From the UHGV virus genome UHGV-1485161: a DNA stretch of 39,148 nucleotides; one strand, written 5' to 3'. The DNA is from a virus. A model generated the notes under the pieces. The model searched no databases and was not told the origin of the DNA. It saw only the letters and a program-made list of their open reading frames with translations. Below are positions 16,088 to 36,405 of the stretch, piece by piece (position 1 is the first letter of the stretch; every line of letters begins with the position of its first letter). The position numbers and the translations under genes were made by a program.

Positions 16088-19768
<3,681 letters not shown>

Positions 19769-19794
<26 letters not shown>

Positions 19795-20314: not shown

Positions 20315-20329
20315 TGTTCATTCCACGGA

Positions 20330-20520
20330 CAAAAACAGAGAAAGGAAACGACAGAGGCCAAAAAGCCCGTTTTCAGCATCTGTCGTTTCCTTTCCTTTCA
20401 GGGGGTGTTTTAAATAAAAACATTAAGTTACGGCGAAGAAGAACGGAAACGCCTTAAACCGGAAAATTTTCATAAATAGCGAAAACCCGCGCGCCTGACG
20501 CCCCGTAACCTGTCGGATCA
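20330..20520 (-). other. cos region: cosB (Nu1 binding sites) and cosN; 12-nt cohesive-end segment at about 20493-20504
   Basis: Sequence upstream of Nu1 aligns by eye with the lambda left end, and 20505 onward with the lambda right end. The 12-mer at the junction is CGCCTGACGCCC (reverse complement GGGCGTCAGGCG) against lambda GGGCGGCGACCT. Confidence 0.6.
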
Positions 20521-20605
20521 CTGGAAAGGACCCGCAAATGATAATAATTATCATCTGCATATCACAACACCTGAAAGTCAACGCGCCCTGAAAGCTGATT
20601 TGCTG

Positions 20606-20920
20606 TTACAAGCAATGCTTTTTTCTTTTTGTTTTATTGCTCATTGCCACCAACTGTTCAGCCATCTCTCTTGTCACACTACCAGAAACTCTTTCTTGAA
20701 TTTTCACAGAAAATTTTCTGGATGTAGTAGCATCGACATTAAAAAATCTGGATGTCATCAGGCAGTTATTAACAATTGGCATCAGCTCACTTACGATTGT
20801 AAAAAATTCCCGGTAAAGCTCATTTTGCTTTTCAACACACAGCTTTCCACAATCGTCCAGCTTACGCTCAAGAGCACTTAATCTTTCCATTATTGAATTA
20901 ATTTTTTGCAACTCTTTCAT
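20606..20920 (-). CDS. hypothetical protein, AT-rich moron next to cos
   Basis: ATG preceded by AGGAGG; MKELQKINSIMERLSALERKLDDCGKLCVEKQNELYREFF...; low GC relative to flanks. The longer track ORF (to 21181) reads through two palindromes and is rejected. Confidence 0.45.
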   Translation of the reverse strand: MKELQKINSIMERLSALERKLDDCGKLCVEKQNELYREFFTIVSELMPIVNNCLMTSRFFNVDATTSRKFSVKIQERVSGSVTREMAEQLVAMSNKTKRKKHCL

Positions 20921-20943: not shown

Positions 20944-20961
20944 GTGCGACCACGGTCGCAC
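20944..20961. repeat. 18-bp palindrome GTGCGACCACGGTCGCAC, copy 1
   Basis: Exact 18-mer, about 25 nt upstream of the 20920 start codon on the minus strand. Confidence 0.7.
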
Positions 20962-21163
20962 GCTCCTGAATACATGCCCTGTTTCTTCCACCCTCGCACA
21001 GGACTGGCGAGCATGAGGGACAAACCCGCGAATCATTAGCGCGGTAAAAACCCGGTGTGCATCGTTTTTGATTATTTCCGCACACTCGCGCAGAGGAGTT
21101 CCCCGTCGGGCTACGGTCATGGTTAATGCGGAAATACGGCGACGATGCAGCGCGGTATTTAAT

Positions 21164-21181
21164 GTGCGACCACGGTCGCAC
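21164..21181. repeat. 18-bp palindrome GTGCGACCACGGTCGCAC, copy 2
   Basis: Exact 18-mer between the 21201..21512 gene and the cos-proximal gene. Confidence 0.7.
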
Positions 21182-21200
21182 ACGAGAAACAAAGAGATTT

Positions 21201-21512
21201 TTATGCTACAGAGGAACAAGCTGGCGGGTAATTCAGCGTAGTGAATACCGGCATCTCCATCTTGTATGCGTAATGATACTCAGCAGTTGCTCCAGCAGAC
21301 GCTTTCCAGCCAGGAAGCATCAAAATAGCATCAGCACAACGAAGCATTGCAAAGCAAATATCCATGTATTCACGTTGTGTCAGACCATTAGGCAAAGTGG
21401 CTGGATTCAAGACAGAGTGACCATGTCGTGACAAACGATCTGCCTCTTTATTAAAGGCGTCACGATTAAAGTTCTCATATCCAGTCATTGGCCCGGCAAT
21501 ATAAATTTTCAT
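21201..21512 (-). CDS. DUF4406 / nucleoside 2-deoxyribosyltransferase-like small protein
   Basis: Track ORF of 103 aa starting MKIYIAGPMTGYENFNRDAFNKEADRL, the typical N-terminal motif of this family. Confidence 0.5.
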   Translation of the reverse strand: MKIYIAGPMTGYENFNRDAFNKEADRLSRHGHSVLNPATLPNGLTQREYMDICFAMLRCADAILMLPGWKASAGATAEYHYAYKMEMPVFTTLNYPPACSSVA

Positions 21513-21553
21513 TCACTATCCAACAAATTGAGTTCGTTTTTGATACAGAGGGA

Positions 21554-22021
21554 TTAATTCGGGCATTGCGTCTTGATGTATTCCTGAAGCGTTCTCAGTG
21601 CTGTCTGGTCTCTGATGATTCCGTCCCGGATACCGAGAACGTTTCGTCCAGCAACTGGAGAGAGTTCGACGGTGGCATCATTGCCCATGCCGGAGGCGCT
21701 GGAGGTTTCGGCTGAGGATGGCACAGAGCATTTTCCTTTGACGAGCACCCGACCACCATTATCAAGCTTGCGCCGAAGAGCATCATTTTCAGCTTTCGCA
21801 TCAGCCAACTCCTTCGTGTATTTTGCATCGAGCGCAGCAACATCACGCTGACGCTGCTGCATGTCAGCGATGGTGGCGGTCGCCTGCTTCAGCTCACTGA
21901 CTTTTTTATCACGCTGTTCTTTGTAGGCGATGGCGTTATCACGGTAATGATTAACAGCCCACGACAGGCAGACGATGATGCAGATAACCAGTGCGGAGAT
22001 AATTGCGGTTACTCTGCTCAT
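21554..22021 (-). CDS. Rz: i-spanin Rz
   Basis: [31 protein letters not shown]... with N-terminal TM and coiled coil; resembles DLP12 RzpD from memory. Track ORF starts 12 nt upstream. Confidence 0.8.
21595..21801 (-). CDS. Rz1: o-spanin Rz1 (lipoprotein) embedded in Rz in the +1 frame
   Basis: [21 protein letters not shown] lipobox followed by a Pro-rich segment [11 protein letters not shown], nested inside Rz. Confidence 0.7.
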
Positions 22022-22518
22022 TGTTGACCCCACAAACAGACTTCACGCTCAATCTCACGACGAGTCATCAGGCCTTTCCATTGCTTACCGCCAGCAGATA
22101 TCCAGCGACGTAGCTGATCACATGCGCCTTTGATATCGCCCTGGTTTATTTTGCGAAGAAGCGTCGATGTTCTGAAATTACCAGCGCCCACGTTGTAAAC
22201 GAACGAGTAAAGAGCGCCGCGCGTTGTTTCCGGTATATCGACTTTGATGTACGGGTTAATTTGTCTGGCGACAGTGGCAAGGTCTTTATTCAGGAGAGCT
22301 TTGCATTCTGCTTCGGTATACGTTTTACCTAGCATGATGTCTTTTCCAGTGTGTCCGTAACATACAGTCCATACGCCAACAATATCTTTGTATGGTATGT
22401 AACTGACACCTTCCAGACCATCGTTACCACTTGGGCCAGTGATGAGCATAGACGCTATGGCAATAGCCCCGCCACCAATAGCAGCTGTAACAGCTTTGCG
22501 TAATGATGACTGCATCAT
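22018..22518 (-). CDS. SAR endolysin (phage lysozyme, T4-lysozyme-like fold)
   Basis: Track ORF of 166 aa; ...[47 protein letters not shown]... closely resembles P21 R / DLP12 RrrD from memory. Confidence 0.9.
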
Positions 22519-22787
22519 ATTTCCTTCGGTGCTCTCTTCCCCAGCTCTCCAATAACCATCGCTGTAGCAGAAAGATTATTGGTATTAGTTTTATCCAATA
22601 TCTCCTGCAATATCTTCGTGCGCTTCATCTGCTCGCGTTTATTGAGCCGGTATGTAAGCACACCGAGGATAATGCTGAACGCGACACCGATAATGAAGCC
22701 CCAATCCTGCAATGACAGGCTGGCAAAGAACGCAGCAAGACCGGCGCTACCATAAGATGCACTGCTGTATCGTTCATCCATCTTCAT
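22515..22787 (-). CDS. holin (class II / pinholin-like)
   Basis: Track ORF of 90 aa immediately upstream of and overlapping the endolysin, with two hydrophobic helices and a charged C-terminus. Confidence 0.6.
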
Positions 22788-22837
22788 ATCTCTTACCTCG
22801 CAATAGTTGCTGAGGTTTCGGCTTGGAAACTATATGG

Positions 22838-22868
22838 CGAAAATAACCCCTACCAAAAACGGCAGGGG
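22838..22868 (-). terminator. putative intrinsic terminator between methyltransferase and holin
   Basis: Hairpin CCCCTGCC-loop-GGTAGGGG followed by a U-rich tract on the minus strand. Confidence 0.35.
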
Positions 22869-22882
22869 AATATATTCTCCAG

Positions 22883-23963
22883 TTACTCAAATAACTTTTT
22901 CACTTCATCAACTGTCTGAAGATAACGTTCGCCCTCAATCTCAATACCTATTGCCTGACGTCCTAACTTCAGCGCAGCTTTAATAGTTGAGCCTGATCCC
23001 ATAAAGAAATCGGCAACGATATCTCCGGGGCGTGAACTACTCTTTATAATATGTTCCATCATCGCTGCAGGTTTTTCACATGGGTGCTTGCCAGGATAAT
23101 ATTGCACAGGAGGAAACTCCCATACATCGGTATAAGGTACATCAGCAGTAACATGAAATGGACGGCGTAAATTTTCATACTGAGCCTTCAAATCATCATA
23201 CTGCTTCTTTACTTCCTCATAATGCAATTTCAGATCGCTATAACGCTTTTCATGTTCTGAATAATCAACATTAAAAGGATATGGACACGGGACACCGAGT
23301 GAATCTGCCTTCCTGCGAAATAATTCGCATAGTTTATTAAAATCAATTAATGATGGAAGCCGCCACTGCGAATAAGAAAACCAGTGTGAACACATCTGCT
23401 TTCCTGTCGCTGAATTAATGTCTGCGGCTGATATATCTAACTGACGGCGAGCCAGCGAAAAAGCATCAATTAGTGGAGAAAAAATATTTTTTCTTAAATC
23501 TGCACATTTTGAAGCATAACCTGACTGACCTTTAGCATAACCTGACGCGCCGTAATGCTCTGCAAATAATATTCTTTCAGTAGCAGGAAAATAAGCCCTT
23601 AAACTTTCTTTATGACAACCGCGCCACATACCACTGGGTTTAGCCCAAATGATATGGTTCAGAACATTGAAACGGTCGCGAGTTAATAATTCAATTTTTG
23701 ACGCAAGGCGAGAGCCGGTAAACATATACAGGCTGCCATTAGGGGCCAATATCCAGCCAAAATTCTAGCAAAAATTCGTCAAATCCACCCCCAAAAAAAG
23801 TCAGCATCGCTATCCCACTGGTTATCCCATGCGTTAGCCTTTACGCCGAAGTATGGTGGGTCTGTTGCAATCAAAATTGACCGGTTATCAGGGATGGTTT
23901 TGATAAATTGCAGAGATCTGCGCAAACGAGTTGTGCGCCATGAATATTAGTGGTTTTGAACAT
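22883..23963 (-). pseudogene. DNA methyltransferase (DPPY and FxGxG motifs), N-terminal region frameshifted
   Basis: Track ORF 22883..23749 has ...FMGSGSTIKAALKLGRQAIGIEI (motif I); upstream in other frames are IPDNRSILIATDPPYFGVKANAWDNQW (motif IV) and MFKTTNIHGAQLVCADLCNLSK. Breaks are at T7/G5/A-runs near 23760-23810 and about 23900. Confidence 0.75.
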
Positions 23964-24103
23964 TAGCTATTTACTTTTTTTTGCCCTGGGGTAAAGCTAA
24001 CCCGGCGATGCGCATCGCGGGTGGGCTTTAGGTTCAGCCTATAGCTCTGGCATGGGTTGACCGCAGGACAAGCTGCAACTTGTCCTGCGCCCACTTTTCA
24101 GGC

Positions 24104-24128
24104 ACAAAAAAACCGCCATAAAGGCGGC
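24104..24128 (-). terminator. intrinsic terminator (tR'-like position upstream of the late/lysis region)
   Basis: Hairpin CCGCC-N5-GGCGG followed by T7 on the minus strand; further hairpins at 23990-24090. Confidence 0.5.
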
Positions 24129-24214
24129 TTGTTGGCTGTTGGGTACAAAAAACCCAACTTAACAAAACAATAACTAAAAACCGTCATTTTGCCAAGCTTT
24201 TTCGTTTTTGTGCT

Positions 24215-24232
24215 GTGCGACCGTGGTCGCAC
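24215..24232. repeat. 18-bp palindrome, copy 3 (GTGCGACCGTGGTCGCAC, reverse orientation)
   Basis: Exact 18-mer immediately after the stop of the 24238..24465 gene. Confidence 0.7.
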
Positions 24233-24237
24233 AGCTT

Positions 24238-24465
24238 TTAGAAAGTTGCCTGCTTATATTCATCGGTCAAAGAATATCGACCAGATCCGCTACGCTTTGC
24301 AACCCCAAAACAGATCATCTGTTCGATGATAAATTCAACGGCAGCTTGACTCAAAAAACAGGCTTCGCTTAACTCTTTCAGGGAAATGTGTGGGTATCCA
24401 CGCATAACACATTCCACACTCAGGGCCGCTTCAGTCATATTTCCACGAATTTCATTAATATTCAT
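24238..24465 (-). CDS. hypothetical small protein
   Basis: Track ORF of 75 aa; no family recognised. Confidence 0.4.
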   Translation of the reverse strand: MNINEIRGNMTEAALSVECVMRGYPHISLKELSEACFLSQAAVEFIIEQMICFGVAKRSGSGRYSLTDEYKQATF

Positions 24466-24478
24466 AACGCCTCTCTAA

Positions 24479-24718
24479 TCAATCTTGAAACTGGAAATCA
24501 ACATCAGCCATAAAGCGGTTCAACTCAGCCAGTTTTGGCCCCATAGTCCCAACTAAGCGACCAGCCAGTCGGTCTGTTAGGTTGGTACTGTTGAAACCAT
24601 ATTCCTTTTCGAAACGTTCAACCTTCTGCCACAACTCATACAGTTCGTTAGCTATCTCCGCAACGTCGCCGCGCATTTTTTCGTTACCTTGATAATTCAT
24701 AATATCCTCCAAATTCAT
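24479..24718 (-). CDS. hypothetical small protein
   Basis: Track ORF of 79 aa; divergent promoter region shared with the toxin-antitoxin operon. Confidence 0.4.
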   Translation of the reverse strand: MNLEDIMNYQGNEKMRGDVAEIANELYELWQKVERFEKEYGFNSTNLTDRLAGRLVGTMGPKLAELNRFMADVDFQFQD

Positions 24719-24865
24719 ATAGTTAGTGGGTTATTGCCCCTCAATGACACGAACTGTAACTCTGCCAAACGAACACATCCAGTGTTATTTTTCGCTTTTT
24801 AATGAAATTTTTAATTTGCGTTGTTTTCTTGTTTTGGTGTATTTTATGGATGTGGAGGCTATAAT

Positions 24866-25177
24866 ATGTTTAACGTGATAACCCACCCTGCAGCACTGGA
24901 TGAACTGCTTGAACTACCAGATGATTTGCGAGGTCGCATGGCCAGATTAATTGAGCGACTGGAGAAAGAAGGCAACAAACTGAAGATGCCCCATAGCCGT
25001 GTAATAGGTGGAGGGCTTTTTGAACTACGAGTAGGGGATAAAAACATCGCAAGAACGCTGTACGCCTACGCGACTGGTAACGAAATTTATCTATTGCATG
25101 CATTTGTAAAAAAGACACAGAAAACACCGGTGAAGGCTATCGAAATCGCCAGAACTCGCCTGAAGGAGATGAACTGA
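24866..25177 (+). CDS. type II toxin, RelE/HigB-like (Gp49-like family)
   Basis: ATG with GGAGG 7 nt upstream; MFNVITHPAALDELLELPDDLRGRMARLIERLEKEGNKLKMPHSRVIGGGLFELRVGD... typical of HigB/Gp49-like killers; 1-nt overlap (TGATG) with the next gene. Confidence 0.65.
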   Translation: MFNVITHPAALDELLELPDDLRGRMARLIERLEKEGNKLKMPHSRVIGGGLFELRVGDKNIARTLYAYATGNEIYLLHAFVKKTQKTPVKAIEIARTRLKEMN

Positions 25178-25464
25178 TGAAAGCGAAAGGCATCCCGTTT
25201 AACGAAGTAAAAGAAAAACTCCTCAACACTCCAGAAGCCGTCAAAGGATATGAAGAGGCCGACAAAGAGCTGGAGATGGTCGAAATGTTATACGAAATGA
25301 GGGAAAGAGCAGGTTTAACGAAATCAGCTCTGGCTGAACGAATGGGGTTACGACCGTCAGCCATCAGCCGCCTGGAAAGCAATCCTTTAGGGGCAAGTAT
25401 GAAAACTTTGGCTAAATATGCTCATGCCTGCGGCGCAGCCATCGATATTCGCGCTGTTTATTAA
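25177..25464 (+). CDS. HTH XRE-family antitoxin (HigA-like)
   Basis: Track ORF of 95 aa with HTH ...LTKSALAERMGLRPSAISRLESNP..., translationally coupled to the toxin. Confidence 0.65.
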   Translation: MKAKGIPFNEVKEKLLNTPEAVKGYEEADKELEMVEMLYEMRERAGLTKSALAERMGLRPSAISRLESNPLGASMKTLAKYAHACGAAIDIRAVY

Positions 25465-25506
25465 TTAGACTCTTTTACTACCCCGTCCAGAAGGGCGGGG
25501 TGTGCA

Positions 25507-25710
25507 TCAATGATGTGAACGCTCAACAGCGATAGTTTTCTGACAATGCTGGGCAATCTCTCGCGACATGTTGATGAGTCGTGAAACCTCACCAATATGT
25601 AGGCTGGCTTCTGGAGAAGCCAGGGTGACGCTAACCAGATCCAGAATGGCGTCAATATCTCTTAAATTTGAATCGAGTTGTTCAAGAGTTGATACGGCTG
25701 CTTCAGACAT
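25507..25710 (-). CDS. hypothetical small protein
   Basis: Track ORF of 67 aa. Confidence 0.35.
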   Translation of the reverse strand: MSEAAVSTLEQLDSNLRDIDAILDLVSVTLASPEASLHIGEVSRLINMSREIAQHCQKTIAVERSHH

Positions 25711-25792
25711 TAAATCTCATACCATTTAACTAAAAAAGGTTGTTTGTACTGTATAAAATTACAGGGTAAAACTCAAACTTTACGGTCAATTT

Positions 25793-26035
25793 TCAATGAA
25801 TTAACTGCGTAAACTGCTGTGTGGCCCGATACTTATGCTCTCTCCCTATGCCACGATCAACTTTCTCAAGAAGTCCAGTACGGACAGCAGAATCAAGCAT
25901 CCTTTTAACAATTCTGCTATTTAACCCAACATCAAAAGCAAGCATCGAAGCGAAAACAAACCCATCACCACCATCAGAAAAGCTCTTTTCGCTCCGTTTT
26001 CGTATCATTTCAAAAAGCAATGCCTTTTTATCCAT
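25793..26035 (-). CDS. hypothetical small protein
   Basis: Track ORF of 80 aa with GGAGGG 7 nt before the ATG, directly downstream of a CGTGACCAGTCACG palindrome. Confidence 0.45.
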   Translation of the reverse strand: MDKKALLFEMIRKRSEKSFSDGGDGFVFASMLAFDVGLNSRIVKRMLDSAVRTGLLEKVDRGIGREHKYRATQQFTQLIH

Positions 26036-26044
26036 TTATCCCTC

Positions 26045-26058
26045 CGTGACCAGTCACG
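26045..26058. repeat. 14-bp palindrome CGTGACCAGTCACG, copy 1
   Basis: Overlaps the stop of the 26054..26380 gene and precedes the RBS of the next gene. Confidence 0.6.
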
Positions 26059-26380
26059 CTTTGAGCGCAAGTTTCAGCCTCGTGGTTGTAAGGTGGCATG
26101 ACCCTTCGCCATCAAAAATGCATTCTGAAACAGGCATTTTTTGACCACATCGCGGGCAAGTAGTAGATAGCTGCTTCTGCAGCTCCTTATAGTTTTTCCT
26201 GATCAGCAAACCAATGACTTCGTTCTCCGAATATGGAACTCGCCCTGGTCTACGCAATACACAAATTTCCCCCAACATACGTAACTCGTCAGGTTCTAGA
26301 ATCCAGTCCCGTCTTGATGTGCCTTCCTTCTTCAACCGTTCCCTGCGTCTCCTTTGCCGTTCTGCCGGTGTCAGCGCCAT
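26054..26380 (-). CDS. hypothetical protein with C-terminal zinc-ribbon-like CPRCG...C motif
   Basis: Track ORF of 108 aa. Confidence 0.45.
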   Translation of the reverse strand: MALTPAERQRRRRERLKKEGTSRRDWILEPDELRMLGEICVLRRPGRVPYSENEVIGLLIRKNYKELQKQLSTTCPRCGQKMPVSECIFDGEGSCHLTTTRLKLALKA

Positions 26381-26395
26381 AAATCCTCCTGAAAA

Positions 26396-26848
26396 TTACT
26401 TAACCCAATTAACTACACCGCCAGCGGCCACAACCGCCCTTTCACAGTCACGCTCATATCTCAAAGGTTGAAATACACCATCAATAAAATATTTATCTCC
26501 ACCAAACGCTGCAGGAAGTGAAACAGAAAACTGAACATGACCATCCGGAGTTACCGGAGAGTTGCCAGCCTCATACGCCACACGCATCCAGTGCAGAAGC
26601 ATTTCAGTGCTCACACAGCCGCAATCAACATCAATTTTGCCGTGCTGCTGTTCCAGCCATTGCTCAAAAGTTAACTTGTAAGTTTGGCTTACAGGTTCTG
26701 CACTATCAGCTTCGCGCCGCTTCTGTAGCTCTGCTGCCATCGCTCTCACGACTTCAACTGGTGCCCTTGCAGCAAACTCTATGTTGGTGATCAGCTCATT
26801 AAGATATTGCTCGCCTGGATACTGTTTCTTATCGGTTATAGTGGTCAT
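26396..26848 (-). CDS. hypothetical protein
   Basis: Start MTTITDKKQYPGEQY overlapping the upstream stop (ATGA), inside track ORF 26396..26890. Confidence 0.5.
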   Translation of the reverse strand: MTTITDKKQYPGEQYLNELITNIEFAARAPVEVVRAMAAELQKRREADSAEPVSQTYKLTFEQWLEQQHGKIDVDCGCVSTEMLLHWMRVAYEAGNSPVTPDGHVQFSVSLPAAFGGDKYFIDGVFQPLRYERDCERAVVAAGGVVNWVK

Positions 26849-26849
26849 A

Positions 26850-27227
26850 TCACTCTCCTTTTCCCTGAAGCATAGCGGCACGGCAGGCATTCCACCCCTT
26901 CACATAACCGAACGCCATCAACTGATCACTCATGGCGGGCAGCATTGTGTGGGTCGTACTGATTTCTTCCGGCACTACCGGCGCTGGCGGGGCGATGCGT
27001 CCAAGCAACTTATTTACCTCTTTCGCCATCGCGTCATATTTATCTAAATGGCGATTAGCTTCTAAGCAGACTCGGCGCATCTGATCTGAGTTAACTCGTT
27101 TAACTGGATCTGCTTCCAGCGATGCCAGAGCAATTCGTGCCAGTTCCATTTGTTCGCCACGAGTAAGTCCGTTATCAAGCGGATTTTTAATGAACAATTC
27201 AATACGTTCTTTGGTAATAGTGGTCAT
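26850..27227 (-). CDS. DUF551-like protein (ead/Ea22-region family), paralogue 1
   Basis: Track ORF of 125 aa; N-terminus MTTITKERIELFIKNPLDNGLTRGEQMELARIALASLEA and C-terminus GWNACRAAMLQGKGE shared with 27502..27912. Confidence 0.55.
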   Translation of the reverse strand: MTTITKERIELFIKNPLDNGLTRGEQMELARIALASLEADPVKRVNSDQMRRVCLEANRHLDKYDAMAKEVNKLLGRIAPPAPVVPEEISTTHTMLPAMSDQLMAFGYVKGWNACRAAMLQGKGE

Positions 27228-27237
27228 GTGTTACTCC

Positions 27238-27501
27238 TTAACCCGCAGTGCTTTCAACTGATGAGGGGAACAAAATCTTTTCATCAAACCCTGCATTCAT
27301 ATCATGGACAGCAACACACCAATCCATTGACGAACGATTATCAAGAGCCTCCATGATTTCATCCATGCGGCGCAGGTCATACAGGTAAATGCTTTTATCG
27401 CCAATGGTGTAAAAACCAATTTTTTTCGGTGATGGGCAGCGATCAAGAACGTCCTGTAATTCGTTCAACCATGCCCGTTCTTTTTTGTTAAAGTTGCCAT
27501 A
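27238..27501 (-). CDS. hypothetical small protein, start probably displaced by a homopolymer indel
   Basis: Track ORF 27238..27468 begins on TTG; an ATG with ATGA overlap (MATLTKK...) lies upstream in another frame across an A6 run. Confidence 0.35.
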   Translation of the reverse strand, partial: YGNFNKKERAWLNELQDVLDRCPSPKKIGFYTIGDKSIYLYDLRRMDEIMEALDNRSSMDWCVAVHDMNAGFDEKILFPSSVESTAG

Positions 27502-27912
27502 TCACTCTCCTTTCCCATGAAGCATAGCGGCGCGGCAGGCGTTCCAGCCTGTAGCGTATGCAGCCGCTTTGCTGCTGCCTTCAACTGGCGCATCCTGCCA
27601 ATACATTTCATCCGGCACTACCGGCGCTGGCAAGGCAGCGTGATAGTAGAGTGGCATAGTTTTGTACAGTGGTTCGCCAGGACTTCCGTCAACCTGATTC
27701 CATTCTTCAACCCAGGCATCAACAACCGCTTTGCTGGTTGATACATGTTCTTCTGAATCTACATTTTGTCCTGATATACAGAACATAACTGCCTCTGCTT
27801 CCAGCGATGCCAGAGCAATTCGTGCCAGTTCCATTTGTTCGCCACGAGTAAGTCCGTTATCAAGCGGATTTTTAATGAATAATTTGATACGTTCTTTGGT
27901 TATAGCGTTCAT
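27502..27912 (-). CDS. DUF551-like protein, paralogue 2
   Basis: Start MNAITKERIKLFIKNPLDNGLTRGEQMELARIALASLEA with AGGAG RBS; C-terminus ...GWNACRAAMLHGKGE. Confidence 0.55.
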   Translation of the reverse strand: MNAITKERIKLFIKNPLDNGLTRGEQMELARIALASLEAEAVMFCISGQNVDSEEHVSTSKAVVDAWVEEWNQVDGSPGEPLYKTMPLYYHAALPAPVVPDEMYWQDAPVEGSSKAAAYATGWNACRAAMLHGKGE

Positions 27913-27913
27913 C

Positions 27914-28603
27914 TCACTCTCCTTTGATGCCAATGTTTACAGACTGGCAAGCCTCTTTGAGCACCCAGTCAACAGCGTCTTTCCATGCTCCGGTTTCGAC
28001 TGGCGGATTCTCACGCTTAACTTGTTCATAGAAACGCACGGCTTTAACCAGTCCTTCTGATGTCACCGGGACTGGCGGGGCAGTGAATAAGGCCTGAATC
28101 TCATAGCTCGGCCTGTCGTTGCAATCCTCTTTTGTCGGTACATATTTCCAGTCACCAACCCACGGCTCCCCCTGAGAGTCCGTAACGCCTTTTTTCACGT
28201 AGCGATATCGCCACGCTACAGGCTCCGCCGCCAGCGCCGCGCGATTGCTCTCCAGCTCTGCAATGCGCTGTTTTGCGGTATCAAGTTCAATCGATAATTT
28301 TTCCAACTGCTCTTTATGCTTCTTGTATTCCTGATATGCGTGCCAGGACTGACCTTTGCGCACACTATCAGTAATATCAGTAATCTGTTCTGGTGTTAGC
28401 GTGGTCAGTGGCTGTGCTGGGAAAATCAGCACTTTCCCGGAATCCCAATCAAAACCAGCGTGAATTGACTGAACCTCAACTGAGGGTGTTGAACCAATGC
28501 TGCCAGGCGAATGAATAACGATTGTTACATCCATATCGCGACGATGGCTGTGGTTGTTGGACAAAATACGATTCACCAACTCAGAAAATTTGGAAAATTT
28601 CAT
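27914..28603 (-). CDS. coiled-coil protein with DUF551-like C-terminus, paralogue 3
   Basis: Track ORF of 229 aa; central coiled coil (EQLEKLSIELDTAKQRIAELESNRAALAA) and a C-terminal region resembling the two paralogues above. Confidence 0.5.
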   Translation of the reverse strand: MKFSKFSELVNRILSNNHSHRRDMDVTIVIHSPGSIGSTPSVEVQSIHAGFDWDSGKVLIFPAQPLTTLTPEQITDITDSVRKGQSWHAYQEYKKHKEQLEKLSIELDTAKQRIAELESNRAALAAEPVAWRYRYVKKGVTDSQGEPWVGDWKYVPTKEDCNDRPSYEIQALFTAPPVPVTSEGLVKAVRFYEQVKRENPPVETGAWKDAVDWVLKEACQSVNIGIKGE

Positions 28604-28890
28604 GCTGATTCCCCTTTCTCTGCTCTCTCCTGTCGGAACATCACTATCATCAGGTCGCCTTTTGTCGCTATCTTGGCTGTTGTGCCTGGCTCAATGCGGC
28701 TAAGTTCAAATGCGTCATAGAACGCCTCTAACACTTTCTGGCGTCTTTCCTGTTTGCGGTGCTTTCCCCACTGCTTTAGAAAAACAGAGGCCGCCCACTT
28801 CCCCGCACTGAACATGATGTAAAACCAACCGAGAAGTGCCAGACCGATATTTAGGGCCGTATCGATCGTTATCGTGGTGTCGATATTCAC
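28600..28890 (-). CDS. small membrane protein
   Basis: Track ORF of 96 aa with one strong hydrophobic helix (LNIGLALLGWFYIMF). Confidence 0.45.
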   Translation of the reverse strand: MNIDTTITIDTALNIGLALLGWFYIMFSAGKWAASVFLKQWGKHRKQERRQKVLEAFYDAFELSRIEPGTTAKIATKGDLMIVMFRQERAEKGESA

Positions 28891-29310
28891 TACGCCACCT
28901 CCTGTAAATTTCCCTGATAAAAAGCCAGCACACGCTGCATAACTTCACTTTTCCGGCAATCGTGACAAATCATGTTCAAGCGCCTGTCGTAACGACGTAT
29001 TTCTCCGTCAGGTAATGACCAGATAAGGTCTGGATCAACCACTACCGATTTCTTCGGCTTTACTCTTGATAGTTTTTTTACGGGCGTTTTGCCAGTCCTT
29101 GCGTGCTTGTGCAGACAGAAATATCCCGGAGCCAGAGATATACAAATCACCACTGGCAGCAAGCTCTCTTGATAAACGACTAACAGCACACCGGCTAATA
29201 CCAGTTTCATCCGCAAGTTGCCTAACCGTTCCTCGTCCATTCAGGCGCACGAGTTCCACAATTTGTTTATTCAGTTCTTCCCTCTGTTCTGGTGTAAAAG
29301 CCTTTGCCAT
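28890..29310 (-). CDS. HTH DNA-binding protein, possibly with a C-terminal Zn-ribbon extension split by a frameshift
   Basis: Track ORF 29035..29310 (MAKAFTPEQREELNKQIVELVRLNGRGTVRQLADETGISRCAVSRL..., HTH). Removing one A from the A7 run near 29074-29080 continues it into ...VVVDPDLIWSLPDGEIRRYDRRLNMICHDCRKSEV... (track ORF 28890..29240). Confidence 0.45.
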
Positions 29311-29909
29311 TACGATTCTCCTTGCCCTTTTACAAGACGGGAGAAAATTGCGGATACATATTTAGCCTGATGAATAGCATCAGCCAAGGCATTGTGTCGT
29401 TGGCCATCAAATGGCATATCTTTTTTAGGATTAAAACCAATAAACTGACCAAGATTAACGATTGTTCGAACATCCTGATCATTAAAATATTCCCACGGAC
29501 AGGCTAAGCCAACGCGCTCATAAGCACCGCGTAAAATTACATTATCGAACGTTGCTCCATTTCCCCATACTTTCAACTTTTTTAAATTACATGCATGGCA
29601 AGTAATAAAGTGTGATAATTCAAAAAGTGCATCATTAATATCAAGGGCATCATTAGTACAAATAGCGGCTCTGGCTTCCTTGCTCTGTTTCAACCACCAT
29701 AAAATGGTATCACCATCGGCGATACCACCATTCAACATCGAGCTTCTGAGATTCACTGGCACATAAAAAGTAGGACCTAATTCCTCACTTTCTGGAGAAA
29801 AAAACACTGCCCCGATAGAAACAATTGGAGCACATGTGTTAGTACCCATTGTTTCAAGGTCAATCATTACATCAGACCGTTTCCTGTCGTAAATAATCTG
29901 ATTAGTCAC
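29310..29909 (-). CDS. DnaQ-like 3'-5' exonuclease (DEDDh family)
   Basis: Track ORF of 199 aa with Exo I motif VMIDLETMG and Exo III motif HNALADAIHQAKYV. Confidence 0.7.
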   Translation of the reverse strand: MTNQIIYDRKRSDVMIDLETMGTNTCAPIVSIGAVFFSPESEELGPTFYVPVNLRSSMLNGGIADGDTILWWLKQSKEARAAICTNDALDINDALFELSHFITCHACNLKKLKVWGNGATFDNVILRGAYERVGLACPWEYFNDQDVRTIVNLGQFIGFNPKKDMPFDGQRHNALADAIHQAKYVSAIFSRLVKGQGES

Positions 29910-29932
29910 GAATAATTCTCCTCAACGTTTAT

Positions 29933-30136
29933 CTATACCCAAATTTTCTGTTGATATGTTCTGGATGGTTTTGGCGTTCTTTCTGATTCAGGTAAATGAA
30001 CATAAACACAATATCCATCACCTAAAAAATCAGAACGAACAACCAGAACTTTCTTACCACGCCGCCGATAAGTATCTGAAAGACGCTCTGCTTCATCATG
30101 CGTCATCGGCCCCTGCTTAAATGGCGTTATTTTCAT
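29933..30136 (-). CDS. hypothetical small protein
   Basis: Internal ATG (MKITPFKQGPMTHDEAERL...) 6 nt downstream of palindrome copy 4; the track ORF start lies inside the palindrome. Confidence 0.4.
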   Translation of the reverse strand: MKITPFKQGPMTHDEAERLSDTYRRRGKKVLVVRSDFLGDGYCVYVHLPESERTPKPSRTYQQKIWV

Positions 30137-30362
30137 TTTCTTGTGCGACCACGGTCGCACCCTCTCTGATTTCCAAGTAACGCTTAATCCAAAGATTTTC
30201 TATATGCTTATTACCTGGCTGATTTGATAAATACCAATCGGCAATTACAGACTGCTTATTACTATCTGGTCGTGTCCTATAACCACAAGTTGGACACCAG
30301 ATAACATATTCATTTCTTACCCCCGAATACCTTAATTCTGGCTTCGACGGTTTCCTGAACAT
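30117..30362 (-). CDS. small zinc-finger-like protein (CPTCGY motif)
   Basis: Internal start MFRKPSKPELRYSGVRNEYVIWCPTCGYRTRPDS... within track ORF 30117..30437. Confidence 0.4.
   Translation of the reverse strand: MFRKPSKPELRYSGVRNEYVIWCPTCGYRTRPDSNKQSVIADWYLSNQPGNKHIENLWIKRYLEIREGATVVAQENENNAI
30143..30160. repeat. 18-bp palindrome GTGCGACCACGGTCGCAC, copy 4
   Basis: Exact 18-mer spanning the 3' end of one gene and the 5' UTR of the next. Confidence 0.7.
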
Positions 30363-30369
30363 AACTTGT

Positions 30370-31080
30370 TTACAAAGGCAGAATGGCACTTCCTGCCCGA
30401 TGGCGTTTGATGATTTCACTGCGCTTCTCCGCCGCATTTAATAATGCAGTTCGATTTAAGCTCAGACATCGCGACTTAATTAAAAGCCAGCGTTCTTTAT
30501 AATCTTGTCTCCAGCTATCAATAGATATATTCAGTAGAAAACTCAGATGCCTGTCCTGTTCTCTCTCATCAACTGCCTCAGCACACGTAAGTTCTGATTT
30601 AACCTGTTGTGCCGCGTAATAAATCAATTTTCGCATAGCTTTTTTCGTGGAGGCCTTCATTTTTTTAAAGCCGCCCCCCGAATGAGCAACCAGAAAATCA
30701 AGCCATAACCACTGACAAACAATCACATCATTGTTGTAATCAGGCTTGCATCCGTAGCAATAATAAAGCCAGGCTGATTCCTCGTTATTCAACTGACCAA
30801 TAGCCCTGCGCCAGCTGGCGCTCTGAAAATCAATATCAGTGAGCAACATTGATGATTGTTTAAATGTTTTCCCCTGATGGAATCTAACCGGCTCAGCAGA
30901 AACGGACACTTCGTATGAGTTATCATCCCCCACACTGATTGACCGGACTGGTTTATTGTTAAACCGTCCTGATCTACCGAGACGCATCTGCTCAAGCTGG
31001 ACCTCCAGAATGCCACGCTGGAGATAATGAACATCAGCCAATGCCGTAGAGACGCAGCTGCGTATATACTCAAGCTCCAC
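30370..31080 (-). CDS. early regulator directly downstream of cro; possible Q-like antiterminator or CII-position protein
   Basis: Track ORF of 236 aa with a Cys-rich segment (YYCYGCKPDYNNDVIVCQW); function inferred only from position. Confidence 0.4.
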   Translation of the reverse strand: MELEYIRSCVSTALADVHYLQRGILEVQLEQMRLGRSGRFNNKPVRSISVGDDNSYEVSVSAEPVRFHQGKTFKQSSMLLTDIDFQSASWRRAIGQLNNEESAWLYYCYGCKPDYNNDVIVCQWLWLDFLVAHSGGGFKKMKASTKKAMRKLIYYAAQQVKSELTCAEAVDEREQDRHLSFLLNISIDSWRQDYKERWLLIKSRCLSLNRTALLNAAEKRSEIIKRHRAGSAILPL

Positions 31081-31291
31081 GCTTACGACTCTCCTTAATC
31101 GACTGCTTTACCCGCCGAGTTGTAAAGTCACTCTTCAGCTTATAAGCAGTACGAACTTCAATATCGCTTTGCCGCAATGAAGGAATCTCTCCAGCGGTTA
31201 ACCATTGGTAAACAGCTCCGGGTGTTACACCTACCCCTGCCGCTGCTTTTTCTACACTGCCAAAATGGCGAATAAGTTCTTCTGGTTTCAT
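31070..31291 (-). CDS. Cro/YdaS-like HTH regulator
   Basis: MKPEELIRHFGSVEKAAAGVGVTPGAVYQWLTAGEIPSLRQSDIE..., divergent from the repressor gene across the operator region. Confidence 0.65.
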   Translation of the reverse strand: MKPEELIRHFGSVEKAAAGVGVTPGAVYQWLTAGEIPSLRQSDIEVRTAYKLKSDFTTRRVKQSIKESRKRGA

Positions 31292-31318
31292 GTTGTTATT
31301 ATAAACAATAAACAACAA

Positions 31319-31360
31319 TTAAAGCCAGCTATAATAAATAAATTTTATAGCCAGCTATAA
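31319..31360. promoter_or_regulatory. immunity-region operators: two 16-bp palindromes TTA(A/T)AGCCAGCTATAA, 26 bp centre to centre, between cro-like and cI-like genes
   Basis: Sites at 31319-31334 and 31345-31360 with 7-bp inverted arms TTATAGC/GCTATAA, in the 91-bp divergent intergenic region. Confidence 0.55.
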
Positions 31361-31382
31361 GAAGATCATTTATGATTAAGCT

Positions 31383-31979
31383 ATGAAAACACGAGGCGAA
31401 CGACTGAAAGCACGCCGTTTAGAGATGAAGCTGACGTTGCGAGAAGTTGCTGAGGCTGTCGATATCTCTATAGCAGGCGTCCAAAACTTAGAACGTGGCG
31501 ACGTAATGCCGTCACTGGAGATAGGTATTGCCCTGGCTAAGTGCTTACGCAAGCCAGTGCATTGGGTGCTATATGGGACAGAATATGACCCTGATCGCAT
31601 TCCTGTTATTGGCACAACTGAAAGTGGGCCGGATGAAGAGTGGAAGCCGGGACAGGTTCCAAATACTGAGCGATTCCTGCCATTCATCAGCCAGCGCAAT
31701 ACTGTGTATGCGTTAACTATCAGCAATCTTACGCAGGGAAACTATCAGCCAGGCGATTTTCTCCTGGTCGATTCTGCGCTGGAACTGGTCCCCGGCGAGG
31801 ATGTTCTGGTTCGTGATACTGCAGGAAATATCACTATCCAGCGCCTGGCCCGTTTTGATGATGAAAATTACTATCTGGATGGAACAAACTCACAACGCGC
31901 CATCTTCAGGAAAAGCGATCTTGAATTTGTTCACCAAATAGTCGGAACGATCAAATCATTCATGGTTGAGGGTAGATGA
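31383..31979 (+). CDS. CI-like repressor (N-terminal XRE HTH plus C-terminal S24/LexA-like domain)
   Basis: Track ORF of 198 aa; HTH LKARRLEMKLTLREVAEAVDISIAGVQNLERGD; C-terminal domain ...GDFLLVDSALELVPGEDVLVRD...; I could not find a clear GxSM nucleophile motif. Confidence 0.8.
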   Translation: MKTRGERLKARRLEMKLTLREVAEAVDISIAGVQNLERGDVMPSLEIGIALAKCLRKPVHWVLYGTEYDPDRIPVIGTTESGPDEEWKPGQVPNTERFLPFISQRNTVYALTISNLTQGNYQPGDFLLVDSALELVPGEDVLVRDTAGNITIQRLARFDDENYYLDGTNSQRAIFRKSDLEFVHQIVGTIKSFMVEGR

Positions 31980-32080
31980 CTTAATATGGGGTTTATTGTT
32001 TACTGTAAATCTGGTTTAATGCAGGGCATATGTTCTGTGGGTTGACTCAGGTTACAGCAGCAGAAAAAAGACGAAAAAAA

Positions 32081-32110
32081 ACCCGAGTCGGCAAACTCGG
32101 GTCCTTTTCA
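32081..32110 (+). terminator. putative intrinsic terminator downstream of the repressor gene
   Basis: Hairpin ACCCGAG-N7-CTCGGGT flanked by A8 upstream and a short T run downstream (potentially bidirectional). Confidence 0.4.
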
Positions 32111-32224
32111 GGAAGCAGCCACAACAACGCGACGGATTCCGTCAATTCAAGATGCGTTTATTGTGGCTGCTCCTGCGGATTTTTTCAACCCGAAAAAACA
32201 TAATTCGCATGGAATGGCTAAAAA

Positions 32225-35200
32225 ATGACATTAAACGATTTCTATGCGGAATCGCATTTGGCAGCGATCCGTTCATCGCTAATTGAAGCAGCACGGGATG
32301 AACTAACCGAGCTGGCACAGATGGCTGGTATCAACTGGTCTGCCTGTTCCGACAACATCCAACTCAACCCTCGCGGGGGTGTTGAGCGTTACTCTTCATA
32401 CAATAAAACATCTCCAGAAGCTCTCGAGAAGAGCCTCAAAGGACGCGTAGAAATTTACTCCCGACTGGAACACAGCAAAGGGATTGATTACCCGTTCATT
32501 AACTTCGTCCATAAAGGCAGCGATGCTGGCTCATGGAGCGGTTTCTCCTTCCTGTTTTCTGAATATCGCCGTGAGCAACAACGGAATAATGCGACCGTGG
32601 TCGCACAACCGGAAGAAGAACGGGCAAGAATAGAACGTGAAGCACGTCGTCGCCGTGAAGAACAAAAACGAATTAATGACCTGAAAAACAACCAAATGGA
32701 CCATGAACGTTTGCTGGGATGGCTGGCATTCCACAGTGCTTGGGAACATGCTCCTGCAGAAGACGGCTCATGGCCATATGCGATTAAAAAAGGTATTCGT
32801 GACGTTTTTAATTCGTGTGATGTGCGTCGCGTGACCAGTCACGACAGCGCAAAATGGAGCAGGGGGCCAACCACGTATATGGCTATCCCTCTGGCTCACC
32901 TGGACGGTCGTTACGATGGTCGTATTGTTGGTTGGCAGCGAATCGACAAACAAGGTGGAAAATACCAGACCAGCGCCGTAACCAGCGGCGATTTCGTCGG
33001 TGCCTGCTTTGTTATCGGTGAGCTGAAAGGGGCGCAAAACATCGCTGTTACAGAAGGTTTTGCTACTGGTGCATCCATCTGGCTTGCCACGAAAAAAGAT
33101 AAACGCTTTGACGCTGTGGTTGTCGCTGTATCCGCTAACAACATGGTTCATGTTGTGGAACAACTGGTAAACATGTACCCGGCGGCAAAAATCACCTGCG
33201 CACTGGATAATGACCGGAAATCAGCTACAGAAGGAAAAGGGAATACCGGCCTGCGGACTGGCTATGAAATCTTATCGAAATTCAACGATGTCCGCTGCGT
33301 CTATCCAACTTTTGAAGACGATCCGCAAATGGAGTGCAGTGACTTCAACGACCTGCACAAACTACGTGGACTTCGTGAAACAGCACGTCAACTGTTTGCA
33401 ACTGCAAACCGCCTGAAAACTGGCACTGATTTGCTATCTCTGACGCTCAACCGCCTGAAGACAATTAAGCGGGATAACCGTCGTACTTTTGCCAAAGAGC
33501 TGCTGAGAGCGGTGGATATTGGCATGCTAACCTGCCCGGTTCCTAACAGTCCGTCAGATTTATTTAACATGTTCTGCATCGTTCTGCGTGAAATGGGACT
33601 GGAAAATATCTATCGCGCTACGGTAAAAGACCACATTGCCCGTCGCCTGAATAAAAAGTGCCGTATTGCCCAGGCTCCGCGCTCTTTCAGCGAACGCATA
33701 ACTGATCCCAATAAACGCCCTCAACATATCACCTATAAGCGTTTTGAAACTTCGGTAATGACCGATGATGTCCTGAAGTACGTGCAATCACTACAGGGGA
33801 TAGTCATCGTCCGTGCTGGTATGGGTTCCGGCAAATCTACTGGATTGTTACGACCGTTAATGCATAGCTCAGAACGTGGTATCTCTGTTGCTCACCGTGT
33901 CTCCCTTATTGGTGGCCTGTGGGAAATGATGACAGAAGGAAAAGGTGTAAAAGCCGATATCCTGCACTATCAGGACCCTGGCTATCAGGAAATGGCTCCA
34001 TACGCCAGTAAACTGACCATCTGCATAAACTCGATTGTTAAAAACTGCTGGCAACCGTTGATGCGCCAGCACGACTATTTTGGCTTTGACGAGGCCACGC
34101 AAGGGCTACGTGCCGTTCTTTCCGGTCGGGCTATGGAAAACCCGGTTGCTGTATTCAATACGCTAATTGACGCGCTGGCCAGAACGGAACAACACCCAAT
34201 CATGGTGGATGCTGATGCGAACGATCTACTGGTTGACCTGGCTGAACTGGCTATGAAACGCCGTGAAGAACTAGGTTTACCGGCATGGCTGCAGATCCAC
34301 GTAATTGAATTACCTGTTGATGTTCGCAACCGCGAAACAGGTGAGCCAATCCGGGTTTTTTATACAGAAAAAGATCGCATCATGACCGAGGTGGTGAAAG
34401 CTGTATCGGATGGCGAAAAAATCATGTTGGCCACCGACAGCTCCACCTTTGCAGAAGATGTGACAGCCACCCTGAGAATGCATTTTCCTGGTAAGAAATT
34501 TCTGTGTGTAAACCAGAAAAACAAACCAGAGCCAGAAGTTGAAGCATTTACCAATCAACCGAAAAAGATGGTCAAAAAATACGACGGCCTGATTTATAGC
34601 CCGTCTATTTCATCCGGCGTGTCGATTGAGCAAAAACATTTTGACCGTCATTTCGGCATGTTCTGTGGTGAAGTTGTACCCAGCGACGCAGTGCAAATGC
34701 TACGCCGCGACCGTACAGCAAAAGAATTTATTATCGGCTTTGATAAAGCTCGTGCAAAACGTGAAACTGACCCGCAAAAAATAGAACGAGCATTCGCCCA
34801 GGCATTGCTTGCTACCGCAGGTATGAACGGTGAACTTACGGATGTCGTTTTCGATGGCGACCGTATATCAATGGGGGTGGCCAATACCGACTTTACCAGG
34901 ATGAAAATTAAAGCAGCCGCAATTGAAGCGACTGCGCGTAACGACTACGCCAGCAACATGATCTGCATCATGCACAGCGACGGTTATAAGGTATCACCGC
35001 TGGCCACCGATTATGCTGCGAATGATATCGGTAAAGATCTGCGTAAAGAAGCGCGGGATATTGTGTGGGAACAGACACTGGATCTGCACCTCAATACAGA
35101 AACTCCACAAGAATCAGAGCGTGAAGAACTGCTAAAAAAACGCGCGCTGACGCTTGAAGAACAGGCAAAACTTGTCCGCTGGGATATTGAAAACGAACTG

Positions 35201-36217
35201 AAACTACCGGTTGAAGAAGGCACGCTGAAATTCTATTTCGATGGTGCTCGAGACAAAGTTCGCCGCTATGAAACAATGCTTTTAGATGAGGTAACAGCTC
35301 GTCGTTACGACCGGGAAGAAGCAGCCATCAATTTTACCTACGCATACCGTCAGGCGGGACAGTGGCAATATTTTGTAGTGACCGCGATGACTCGCGAGCA
35401 GGCTGATGATGTCTTTAAAACTAAATTCCCTGGAATAATCGATCACAAGGTAAAAGCTACTCCTACTGTTGAAGTCGGGGCGCGCGGTTTCTATGCGCTT
35501 AAATCAGCAACTCTCCGGCAGTACTTTATCGACTGCGGTATCAACCCTGAGACTATGACCGGCGAGGCGACTCAGGAGCGTCTCAAATTCGCTCGAGATA
35601 ACCTCATGACAGCCGAACGCCGTGACCTGTTGAATAACGTTCTGCACATTGGTGGTTTTATGACGCCAAAAGGGAAGCCTAAAGTGCCGGAAGCGTTGTT
35701 TAAAAACATTTGCGACTCTCTTGGCCTTAAAACAGGTAAACGTCGCGGCAGAGACGGCGATAAGCGTCCAACCTTGCGTTTTGTTGAGCCTGAATCAGCG
35801 GCATTTATGCTGGATATTCTTGCTCAGCGTCAGAAAGATGGCCTAACCCTGAAAACGCGTAAAGCCGAGAAGACCGCCATCGAAATGGATCGCGATTTGG
35901 ATCTCAATATATATATGGATGATAAAACGCGATCCACAAACGAGCAGGTTCAAAACGCCCCTCATTCAGTAATTTCTGAGGCTTTGGCTGTGTTGCCAGT
36001 GGTTGTACCTGAGTCCTGGGCGATGAGTGCGCTTTCCGGTGAGGAGCTGGCCACTATGTCATCATGGTCATCAGCCAGCATAGCTATGACGTTTGCCTCT
36101 CTGTACCTCACAGAGTTCATGGATCACTTATCCAGCAATGAACTGCGGCGGTTACGTGAATACATTACCGGGAATAGCCCATGCAGCTACGAAGAGCAGG
36201 GCGCTTTCTATGGGTAA
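32225..36217 (+). CDS. replication protein: Toprim primase domain plus P-loop NTPase/helicase, N15 RepA-like architecture
   Basis: Track ORF of 1330 aa with Toprim motifs (IAVTEGFATGASIW, CALDNDRKS), Walker A VRAGMGSGKST and Walker B YFGFDEATQ, and a long C-terminal region. Size and gene order (repressor then replicase on the same strand) recall N15 repA from memory. Confidence 0.7.
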   Translation: MTLNDFYAESHLAAIRSSLIEAARDELTELAQMAGINWSACSDNIQLNPRGGVERYSSYNKTSPEALEKSLKGRVEIYSRLEHSKGIDYPFINFVHKGSDAGSWSGFSFLFSEYRREQQRNNATVVAQPEEERARIEREARRRREEQKRINDLKNNQMDHERLLGWLAFHSAWEHAPAEDGSWPYAIKKGIRDVFNSCDVRRVTSHDSAKWSRGPTTYMAIPLAHLDGRYDGRIVGWQRIDKQGGKYQTSAVTSGDFVGACFVIGELKGAQNIAVTEGFATGASIWLATKKDKRFDAVVVAVSANNMVHVVEQLVNMYPAAKITCALDNDRKSATEGKGNTGLRTGYEILSKFNDVRCVYPTFEDDPQMECSDFNDLHKLRGLRETARQLFATANRLKTGTDLLSLTLNRLKTIKRDNRRTFAKELLRAVDIGMLTCPVPNSPSDLFNMFCIVLREMGLENIYRATVKDHIARRLNKKCRIAQAPRSFSERITDPNKRPQHITYKRFETSVMTDDVLKYVQSLQGIVIVRAGMGSGKSTGLLRPLMHSSERGISVAHRVSLIGGLWEMMTEGKGVKADILHYQDPGYQEMAPYASKLTICINSIVKNCWQPLMRQHDYFGFDEATQGLRAVLSGRAMENPVAVFNTLIDALARTEQHPIMVDADANDLLVDLAELAMKRREELGLPAWLQIHVIELPVDVRNRETGEPIRVFYTEKDRIMTEVVKAVSDGEKIMLATDSSTFAEDVTATLRMHFPGKKFLCVNQKNKPEPEVEAFTNQPKKMVKKYDGLIYSPSISSGVSIEQKHFDRHFGMFCGEVVPSDAVQMLRRDRTAKEFIIGFDKARAKRETDPQKIERAFAQALLATAGMNGELTDVVFDGDRISMGVANTDFTRMKIKAAAIEATARNDYASNMICIMHSDGYKVSPLATDYAANDIGKDLRKEARDIVWEQTLDLHLNTETPQESEREELLKKRALTLEEQAKLVRWDIENELKLPVEEGTLKFYFDGARDKVRRYETMLLDEVTARRYDREEAAINFTYAYRQAGQWQYFVVTAMTREQADDVFKTKFPGIIDHKVKATPTVEVGARGFYALKSATLRQYFIDCGINPETMTGEATQERLKFARDNLMTAERRDLLNNVLHIGGFMTPKGKPKVPEALFKNICDSLGLKTGKRRGRDGDKRPTLRFVEPESAAFMLDILAQRQKDGLTLKTRKAEKTAIEMDRDLDLNIYMDDKTRSTNEQVQNAPHSVISEALAVLPVVVPESWAMSALSGEELATMSSWSSASIAMTFASLYLTEFMDHLSSNELRRLREYITGNSPCSYEEQGAFYG
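32590..32606. repeat. 18-bp palindrome, copy 5 (17 of 18 match), inside the replicase coding region
   Basis: TGCGACCGTGGTCGCAC within codons NNATVVAQ. Confidence 0.6.
32830..32843. repeat. 14-bp palindrome CGTGACCAGTCACG, copy 2, inside the replicase coding region
   Basis: Exact 14-mer about 240 bp downstream of palindrome copy 5. Confidence 0.6.
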
Positions 36218-36401: not shown

Positions 36402-36405
36402 AAAT

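Follow-up and report, generated by a model that had tools for sequence, protein, structure and literature searches.

The viral genome UHGV-1485161, given as one strand of 39,148 nucleotides and referred to here at its full length as the window, contains a short palindrome in five copies, which we compare with the centromere sites of N15, a linear plasmid-prophage. All five copies follow the consensus GTGCGACC-NN-GGTCGCAC. A pattern search of the window located the exact form GTGCGACCNNGGTCGCAC at 20944-20961, 21164-21181, 24215-24232 and 30143-30160, and the fifth copy, ATGCGACCGTGGTCGCAC, agrees in 17 of 18 positions, with its single mismatch at the outermost base. This last copy extends over 32589-32606 and not over 32590-32606 as an initial annotation of the window had it, whereas the coordinates of the four exact copies given there stand. 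The 16-bp core TGCGACCNNGGTCGCA is perfect in five of five copies. By chance 0.02 copies are expected, and none of 100 dinucleotide-preserving shuffles reached five, which bears out the claim that the copies are non-random. No further copy was found elsewhere in the window at up to two mismatches. The copies are also, as had been claimed, confined to the non-virion half, since the virion half (1-20299) contains none at up to two substitutions and a single chance-level match at three substitutions. The five sites, four of which are named here after their N15 orthologues IR1 to IR4, lie as follows:

32589-32606: IR1 orthologue, inside repA (gene nt 365-382; codons N-A-T-V-V-A), with the perfect core at 32590-32605
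30143-30160: IR2 orthologue, downstream of Q in the 3' end of the open reading frame (ORF) QD1 (codons G-A-T-V-V-A)
24215-24232: IR3 orthologue, 5 nt past the stop of a gp51-like ORF and 19 nt upstream of the -35 box of the late promoter
21164-21181: positional orthologue of IR4, 19 nt past the stop of the DUF4406 gene
20944-20961: fifth SopB-type site, 23 nt upstream of the AGGAGG-ATG (ATG at 20920) of the last gene before cos

The genes and other features next to these sites are:

32225-36217, plus strand: repA, for a replication protein of the primase-helicase type (CyRepA1 family), with the IR1 orthologue inside the gene
30370-31080, minus strand: Q antiterminator gene (Pfam Phage_antiter_Q, E = 9.6e-84), upstream of the IR2 orthologue
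30117-30437, minus strand: ORF QD1, which has the IR2 orthologue in its 3' end and a weak Lar-like match
24167-24195, minus strand: element TTGGCA-17-TATTGT that resembles a late (Q-dependent) promoter, a short distance downstream of the IR3 orthologue
24110-24130, minus strand: hairpin that has a T-run and resembles a terminator, downstream of the late promoter; the equivalent position is an annotated terminator in N15 and phiKO2
21201-21512, minus strand: DUF4406 gene, located immediately upstream of the IR4 orthologue and homologous to N15 gp57 and phiKO2 gp58
20962-21163: non-coding 202-bp segment of lambdoid-phage origin, bracketed by two close sites
20606-20920, minus strand: ORF of 104 amino acids without a Pfam match, directly downstream of the fifth site

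The initial annotation had assigned three copies to start codons or gene junctions and one to the replicase gene. The former is roughly right and can be refined, as the 20944 copy precedes an ATG and those at 21164 and 24215 follow stop codons; the latter holds for the copy at 32589 in repA, but the copy at 30143 lies within an ORF as well. The repA gene is about 75% identical to N15 gene 37 at the DNA level, and the DUF4406 gene is 83-85% identical to N15 gp57 and phiKO2 gp58. The promoter-like element at 24167-24195 is homologous to the annotated late-promoter signals of N15 and phiKO2, and the hairpin at 24110-24130 is a likely target of Q antitermination.

A search for the motif in related elements, as had been suggested together with the initial annotation, returned four copies each in N15 and phiKO2 and five each in Escherichia phage PhiR46_1 and plasmid p19KM1803_4. 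The N15 copies lie at 33479 in repA, at 35930 downstream of Q, at 41124, which is 20 nt upstream of the annotated -35 box of the late promoter (-35 at 41162), and at 45561 between genes 58 and 59. The oligonucleotides from which the '4xIR' N15 centromere was built contain the palindrome core (PMC7205306, Table 4), and they map onto the four N15 matches, which are IR1 to IR4, with the IR1 oligonucleotide at 33479. In the GenBank record of phiKO2 (NC_005857) four 18-bp features at the same syntenic positions are labeled 'putative plasmid partitioning site'. Like N15, the window has the arms GTGCGACC and GGTCGCAC around two free bases, a dispersed layout and four shared positions (in repA, after Q, before the late promoter and before cos), and its close relatives encode a protelomerase as well as SopA and SopB in an operon of the same type. 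It differs from N15 in having five sites instead of four, the extra one being that at 20944, in the centres, which are TC and AT at IR2 and IR3 of N15 but AC or GT in the window, and in the lysis genes and the DNA between the sites, which are common to E. coli lambdoid phages. phiKO2 shares with the window a site directly after the DUF4406-like gene (gp58) and another one before the 'putative late promoter', but it has four sites and an HK97-like virion module.

The copy at 20944 is without a counterpart in N15 or phiKO2, and the other four are the orthologues of IR1 to IR4. Around these, the flanks are 70% (IR1), 75% (IR2), 34-42% (IR3) and 21-30% (IR4, about random) identical to N15, and the IR1 site itself is 89% identical. 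The arms are invariant across the window, N15 and phiKO2, and all changes are limited to the two centre bases or to the outermost base of IR1. The gap between the IR3 site and the -35 box measures 19-20 nt in all three. As read by eye from the sequences, the IR1 and IR2 orthologues are both coding and used in the same frame (A-T-x-V-A), and the QD1 reading frame is kept in N15, phiKO2 and the window.

The window is 96-98% identical to PhiR46_1 where the two share sequence, and its right half is 97-98% identical to YDC107_1, PhiR46_1 and a set of E. coli plasmid records of about 46 kb. The PhiR46_1 record is complete from telomere to telomere and has the order telL, protelomerase, repA, immunity region, Q, late genes, cos, lambda-like virion genes, ParB, ParA, telR. 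The window aligns to positions 2232-40533 of this record, and therefore the protelomerase and the partition operon are to be placed just outside its two ends, with the position of the PhiR46_1 sopB about 3 kb beyond the window end. All five sites are present at the same positions in the complete PhiR46_1 and p19KM1803_4, in the latter base for base, and neither has an extra copy at up to three mismatches. These two independent relatives both encode sopA and a protelomerase, and their ParB shares 74% identity with N15 SopB and matches the NCBIfam plasmid ParB equivalog. Of 5,426 complete E. coli genomes, 17 carry the repA lineage of the window, in all cases on plasmid records and never on a chromosome. 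Therefore the window is the interior of an N15-type linear phage-plasmid and not an integrated prophage, and the description of the DNA as an ordinary prophage had to be given up.

The SopB site of F is TGGGACCACGGTCCCA (PMC3597684), and the N15 and F centromeres differ in one nucleotide per half-site (PMC2910045). The window shows the same distance from F, with TGCGACC vs TGGGACC, i.e., one symmetric base per half-site (C for G). All determinants of sequence specificity have been assigned to residues 179-200 of N15 SopB (PMC2910045). N15 SopB forms foci on the 4xIR array and F SopB functions with the F site only (PMC7205306), and with the N15 repA centromere site and sopAB in trans a linear vector is lost at <0.1% per generation (PMC2847241). 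F sopC has in common with the window sites a SopB/ParB of the type Ia family and the same 16-bp palindrome architecture. However, it consists of 10-12 tandem 43-bp repeats clustered beside sopB, whereas the sites of the window occur one by one over a distance of 12 kb, and about 25 kb separate sopB from the nearest site in PhiR46_1.

We searched telomere phage-plasmids de novo and without bias for recurring perfect palindromes with 7-nt arms. The sopC-like site was the top palindrome in every one searched except Aeromonas phiARM81ld, as follows:

Window and PhiR46_1: TGCGACC-NN-GGTCGCA, five copies
N15, phiKO2 and Enterobacter phage MStein-2023a: TGCGACC-NN-GGTCGCA, four copies each with one mismatch allowed
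Vibrio phage K242: TGCGACC-NN-GGTCGCA, three copies, with outer bases T...A
Yersinia phage PY54: TGGGACC-NN-GGTCCCA, which is the F type (TGGGACCNNGGTCCCA), eight copies, of which two lie in the virion module
Aeromonas phiARM81ld: unrelated palindrome G(T/C)GGGGCCANTGGCCCCAC, 11 copies, genome-wide

In an alignment of the ParB proteins, those of the N15 group read EG(I/V)DRNI, whereas SpyB of PY54 and SopB of F read ENISRKI. The ParB segment of the relatives, which stands here for that of the window element, contains EGVDRNI and is identical to N15 179-200 in 17 of 22 residues. Within the stretch aligned to N15 SopB residues 186-196, position 189 (N15 numbering) is Gly in the ParBs with TGCGACC sites and Asn in those with TGGGACC sites, which makes it a candidate specificity residue (n=6 ParBs), while the tracking of D-R-N vs S-R-K is imperfect, as Vibrio phage K242 combines S-R-K with a TGCGACC site. 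PY54 resembles the window in its dispersed palindromic ParB sites, one of which lies at the orthologous repA codons, but it differs in the F-type sequence, the eight copies and a SpyB with the F-like ENISRKI. At these repA codons G-T-T-V-P replaces A-T-V-V-A, and the flanking changes from Ala to Gly and from Ala to Pro are exactly those that a symmetric C/G switch demands. What is kept is thus the site in the DNA and not the protein, so that the palindrome is the target of selection. Across the relatives the palindrome tracks ParB, and the pairing found in PY54 and F, set beside that of the N15 type, cleanly illustrates how in nature a centromere site and its ParB recognition helix switch together, visible even within the repA frame.

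The five palindromes are thus very probably the parS-like sites of a dispersed centromere, part of a type Ia ParABS (SopABC) system that belongs to an N15-type linear plasmid-prophage. The basis of this assignment lies in sequence comparison, namely in the identity to the experimentally used N15 sites, the conserved synteny, the purifying selection on the arms and the co-variation with ParB. We infer that the element's own SopB binds all five copies, the extra one included. A SopB (ParB) dimer, encoded just beyond the left end of the window, would dock onto each 16-18-bp palindrome via its helix-turn-helix, and bound SopB would nucleate a larger partition complex. The SopA ATPase would then position this complex on the nucleoid, so that each daughter inherits the low-copy linear plasmid. 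In type Ia ParABS systems, a palindrome-bound ParB dimer loads more ParB onto the neighbouring DNA, which yields the partition complex, and this complex stimulates the ParA-type ATPase on the nucleoid and thereby separates the sister plasmids.

Some points weigh against the assignment to SopB. Coding sequence for SopA, SopB or TelN was not detected in the window by local tblastn, and that the source replicon encodes the cognate protein is deduced from relatives with 96-99% identity. Moreover, the SopB of a relative differs from that of N15 in 5 of the 22 residues of the specificity segment, all five differences being conservative. Finally, the data on SopB binding and on stabilisation were obtained with the N15 sites and so come from another lineage (PMC7205306, PMC2847241).

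A palindrome in transcribed DNA can also be read as an RNA hairpin, i.e., as an intrinsic terminator, a processing site or an element of translational control, and the initial annotation had considered such a role with a stem of 8 bp and a loop of 4 nt. The isolated 18-mer folds with the 4-nt loop, but its stem comprises 7 bp. With flanks, all copies fold with predicted stems of 6-10 bp and predicted energies from -8.7 to -20.1 kcal/mol. The 20944 copy alone was flagged as terminator-like, on the minus strand and with the weak tail GTATCTTTGT, and the N15 record labels its IR4 a putative rho-independent terminator. However, perfect palindromes always fold, and the fold of the repA copy is indistinguishable from shuffles (z = -1.24). 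The combination of a G+C-rich hairpin and a U-run that characterizes intrinsic terminators was not found, as four of the five copies are without a T-run and that of the remaining one is weak, and an Rfam scan of the whole window gave no RNA family at any of the five sites. The IR3 orthologue lies upstream of a promoter and hence in the position of a DNA-binding site. Furthermore, it is the sequence itself, beyond its pairing, that is kept identical across hosts with unrelated flanks, the sole variant, that of PY54 and F, goes with the corresponding change of specificity in the cognate ParB, and the same sequence has been demonstrated as the DNA-binding site of SopB in N15. A function as RNA hairpin is therefore very improbable.

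The initial view that the repeats are functional holds, and of the roles proposed for them that of operators for an unidentified regulator comes closest, since the palindromes are very probably protein-binding sites; their primary role, however, would be segregation and the binder SopB. In the narrower form of this proposal, the sites are operators for a Cro-like, a CB/CI-like, a helix-turn-helix antitoxin or the Q protein encoded in the window and mainly control early or late operons. The size of the palindrome would suit a dimeric helix-turn-helix protein, and one copy precedes the -35 box of the late promoter by 19 nt and another one a start codon by 23 nt. On the other hand, the CB operators of N15 are annotated at 34056-34094 and 34729-34793, where they flank the repressor gene, and none of the four N15 palindromes is found there. 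Correspondingly, no copy of the window lies within 31080-32225. Two copies are situated in coding sequence far from promoters, and across the relatives the site co-varies with the helix-turn-helix of ParB. We consider control by one of these proteins very unlikely, and the binder would be SopB, which is encoded outside the window, and not one of the candidates listed in the initial annotation. A secondary effect of SopB on transcription at the IR3 orthologue is plausible because the spacing from IR3 to the late promoter is conserved at 19-20 nt, and such a regulatory side-effect belongs to the centromere explanation and does not compete with it. The origin of N15 presumably lies in the 3' part of repA, and hence the idea that the repA copy (nt 365-382) is part of the origin was set aside.

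For annotation, the assignment to SopB means that the window belongs to a linear plasmid-prophage and that the sites should be read neither as terminators nor as start-codon contexts. As a discovery it has little weight, since work on the dispersed sites that SopB binds in N15 reportedly goes back to 1999, and the GenBank record of phiKO2 annotates its copies. The kind of site, its sequence and four of the five positions are therefore already known, and only the fifth copy is new relative to N15 and phiKO2.

This fifth site at 20944 is located 220 bp from the IR4 orthologue, across the segment of lambdoid origin. It is present with the same 220-bp spacing in PhiR46_1, YDC107_1 and p19KM1803_4, whereas N15, phiKO2 and Enterobacter phage MStein-2023a have four sites only, without a counterpart of it. 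A local duplication as the source of the two close sites was rejected, as their flanks are unrelated. The segment between them (20962-21163) was also considered as a remnant of the N15 gene 58 methylase, but tblastn gave no significant match, and it is instead lambdoid non-coding DNA with 80-93% identity to 424 phage records, mostly of lambdoid and Stx phages, which lack a Sop system. A further copy of this 202-bp segment is found in PhiR46_1 near cos (19604-19775). At its late end, the phage-plasmid forms a mosaic with lambdoid phages that integrate.

A single orphan copy of the palindrome was observed in Escherichia sp. E1V33 (NZ_RHJI01000023.1, a 131-kb contig; 2127-2144 of the extracted stretch). 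Its neighbours are Rz and Nu1 of a lambdoid prophage-like region, the virion genes of which are 96.7% identical to window 15235-20533. The orphan is orthologous to the 20944 site, with about 290 bp shared around the copy at 93% identity, and no second site exists in E1V33 at the place equivalent to 21164. One might suppose that recombination between phage-plasmids and integrating lambdoid phages carries SopB sites along with DNA of the late region and that the orphan serves as an incompatibility or exclusion determinant, but we regard this as unlikely. If true, a chromosomal orphan site could titrate SopB or pair with partition complexes and thereby exclude incoming N15-type phage-plasmids, and extra sites could tune stability or late-gene expression. 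The fifth copy and the E1V33 orphan are a minor lead and no discovery.

Identical copies with unrelated flanks, as seen at IR4 and the fifth site, together with the orphan in E1V33, could also point to a small mobile unit or a generic host repeat, similar to repetitive extragenic palindromic (REP) sequences or miniature inverted-repeat transposable elements (MITEs), that has spread into the phage genome. A comparison with the host chromosome had been named initially as the check on this possibility. In 150 kb of the E. coli K-12 chromosome, sampled as three pieces of 50 kb, there was no match at up to two substitutions, compared to five perfect cores within 18.8 kb of the window, so that the motif was not refuted as a phage element. 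A scan of one genome per species (596 Gb) gave at least 120 loci. Among the matches listed, 118 of 120 loci are single-copy, their median G+C content is 0.67 and their centre dinucleotides are arbitrary, so these chance-like singletons represent the expectation for 16 specified bases in 596 Gb. The viral contigs with the motif have about 50% G+C and often several copies, with AC or GT as the centre in 147 of 157 sites. In two lambdoid records that share the 202-bp segment, no match was found within ±1.5 kb even at four substitutions. Since the K-12 sample is empty and the lambdoid phages checked, with homologous surroundings, lack the motif, it is specific to Sop-bearing phage-plasmids. A mobile unit is further opposed by the orthologous positions in N15, phiKO2 and the window despite about 25% divergence and by the lack of flanking duplications in the compared sequences, and the flank of about 290 bp (93%) that accompanies the orphan indicates recombination rather than transposition. 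The suggested mobile palindromic unit is therefore extremely improbable.

Some further observations concern the element itself and its relatives. The YDC107_1 record (CP025712.1) repeats the arm from repA to the protelomerase in inverted form, such that the genes of 28021-36551 appear again, reversed, at 36934-46299, and it is without sopAB. This looks like an assembly read-through of the hairpin telomere and not like a true genome. In the same annotation, an ORF start is placed on a GTG within the IR2-type site. Compared to PhiR46_1, the window has an additional stretch of about 1.55 kb in the early-left operon (26698-28246), on both sides of which the alignment resumes, and which presumably is a variable accessory-gene cassette. 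On the plus strand, Rfam matches above the gathering score comprise the C4 antisense RNA (37686-37773), isrK (37584-37657) and the c4 a1b1 target (37571-37623), and the region 37571-37773 is an antisense-RNA immunity (antirepressor control) region of the P1/N15 type. A BRO-domain gene (38218-38925) lies downstream of it. At the other end of the window, a full-length gene for an Ail/Lom family outer-membrane protein is present on the minus strand (854-1453; Pfam E = 4e-125), which adjoins a J-like tail tip gene in the manner of lambda.

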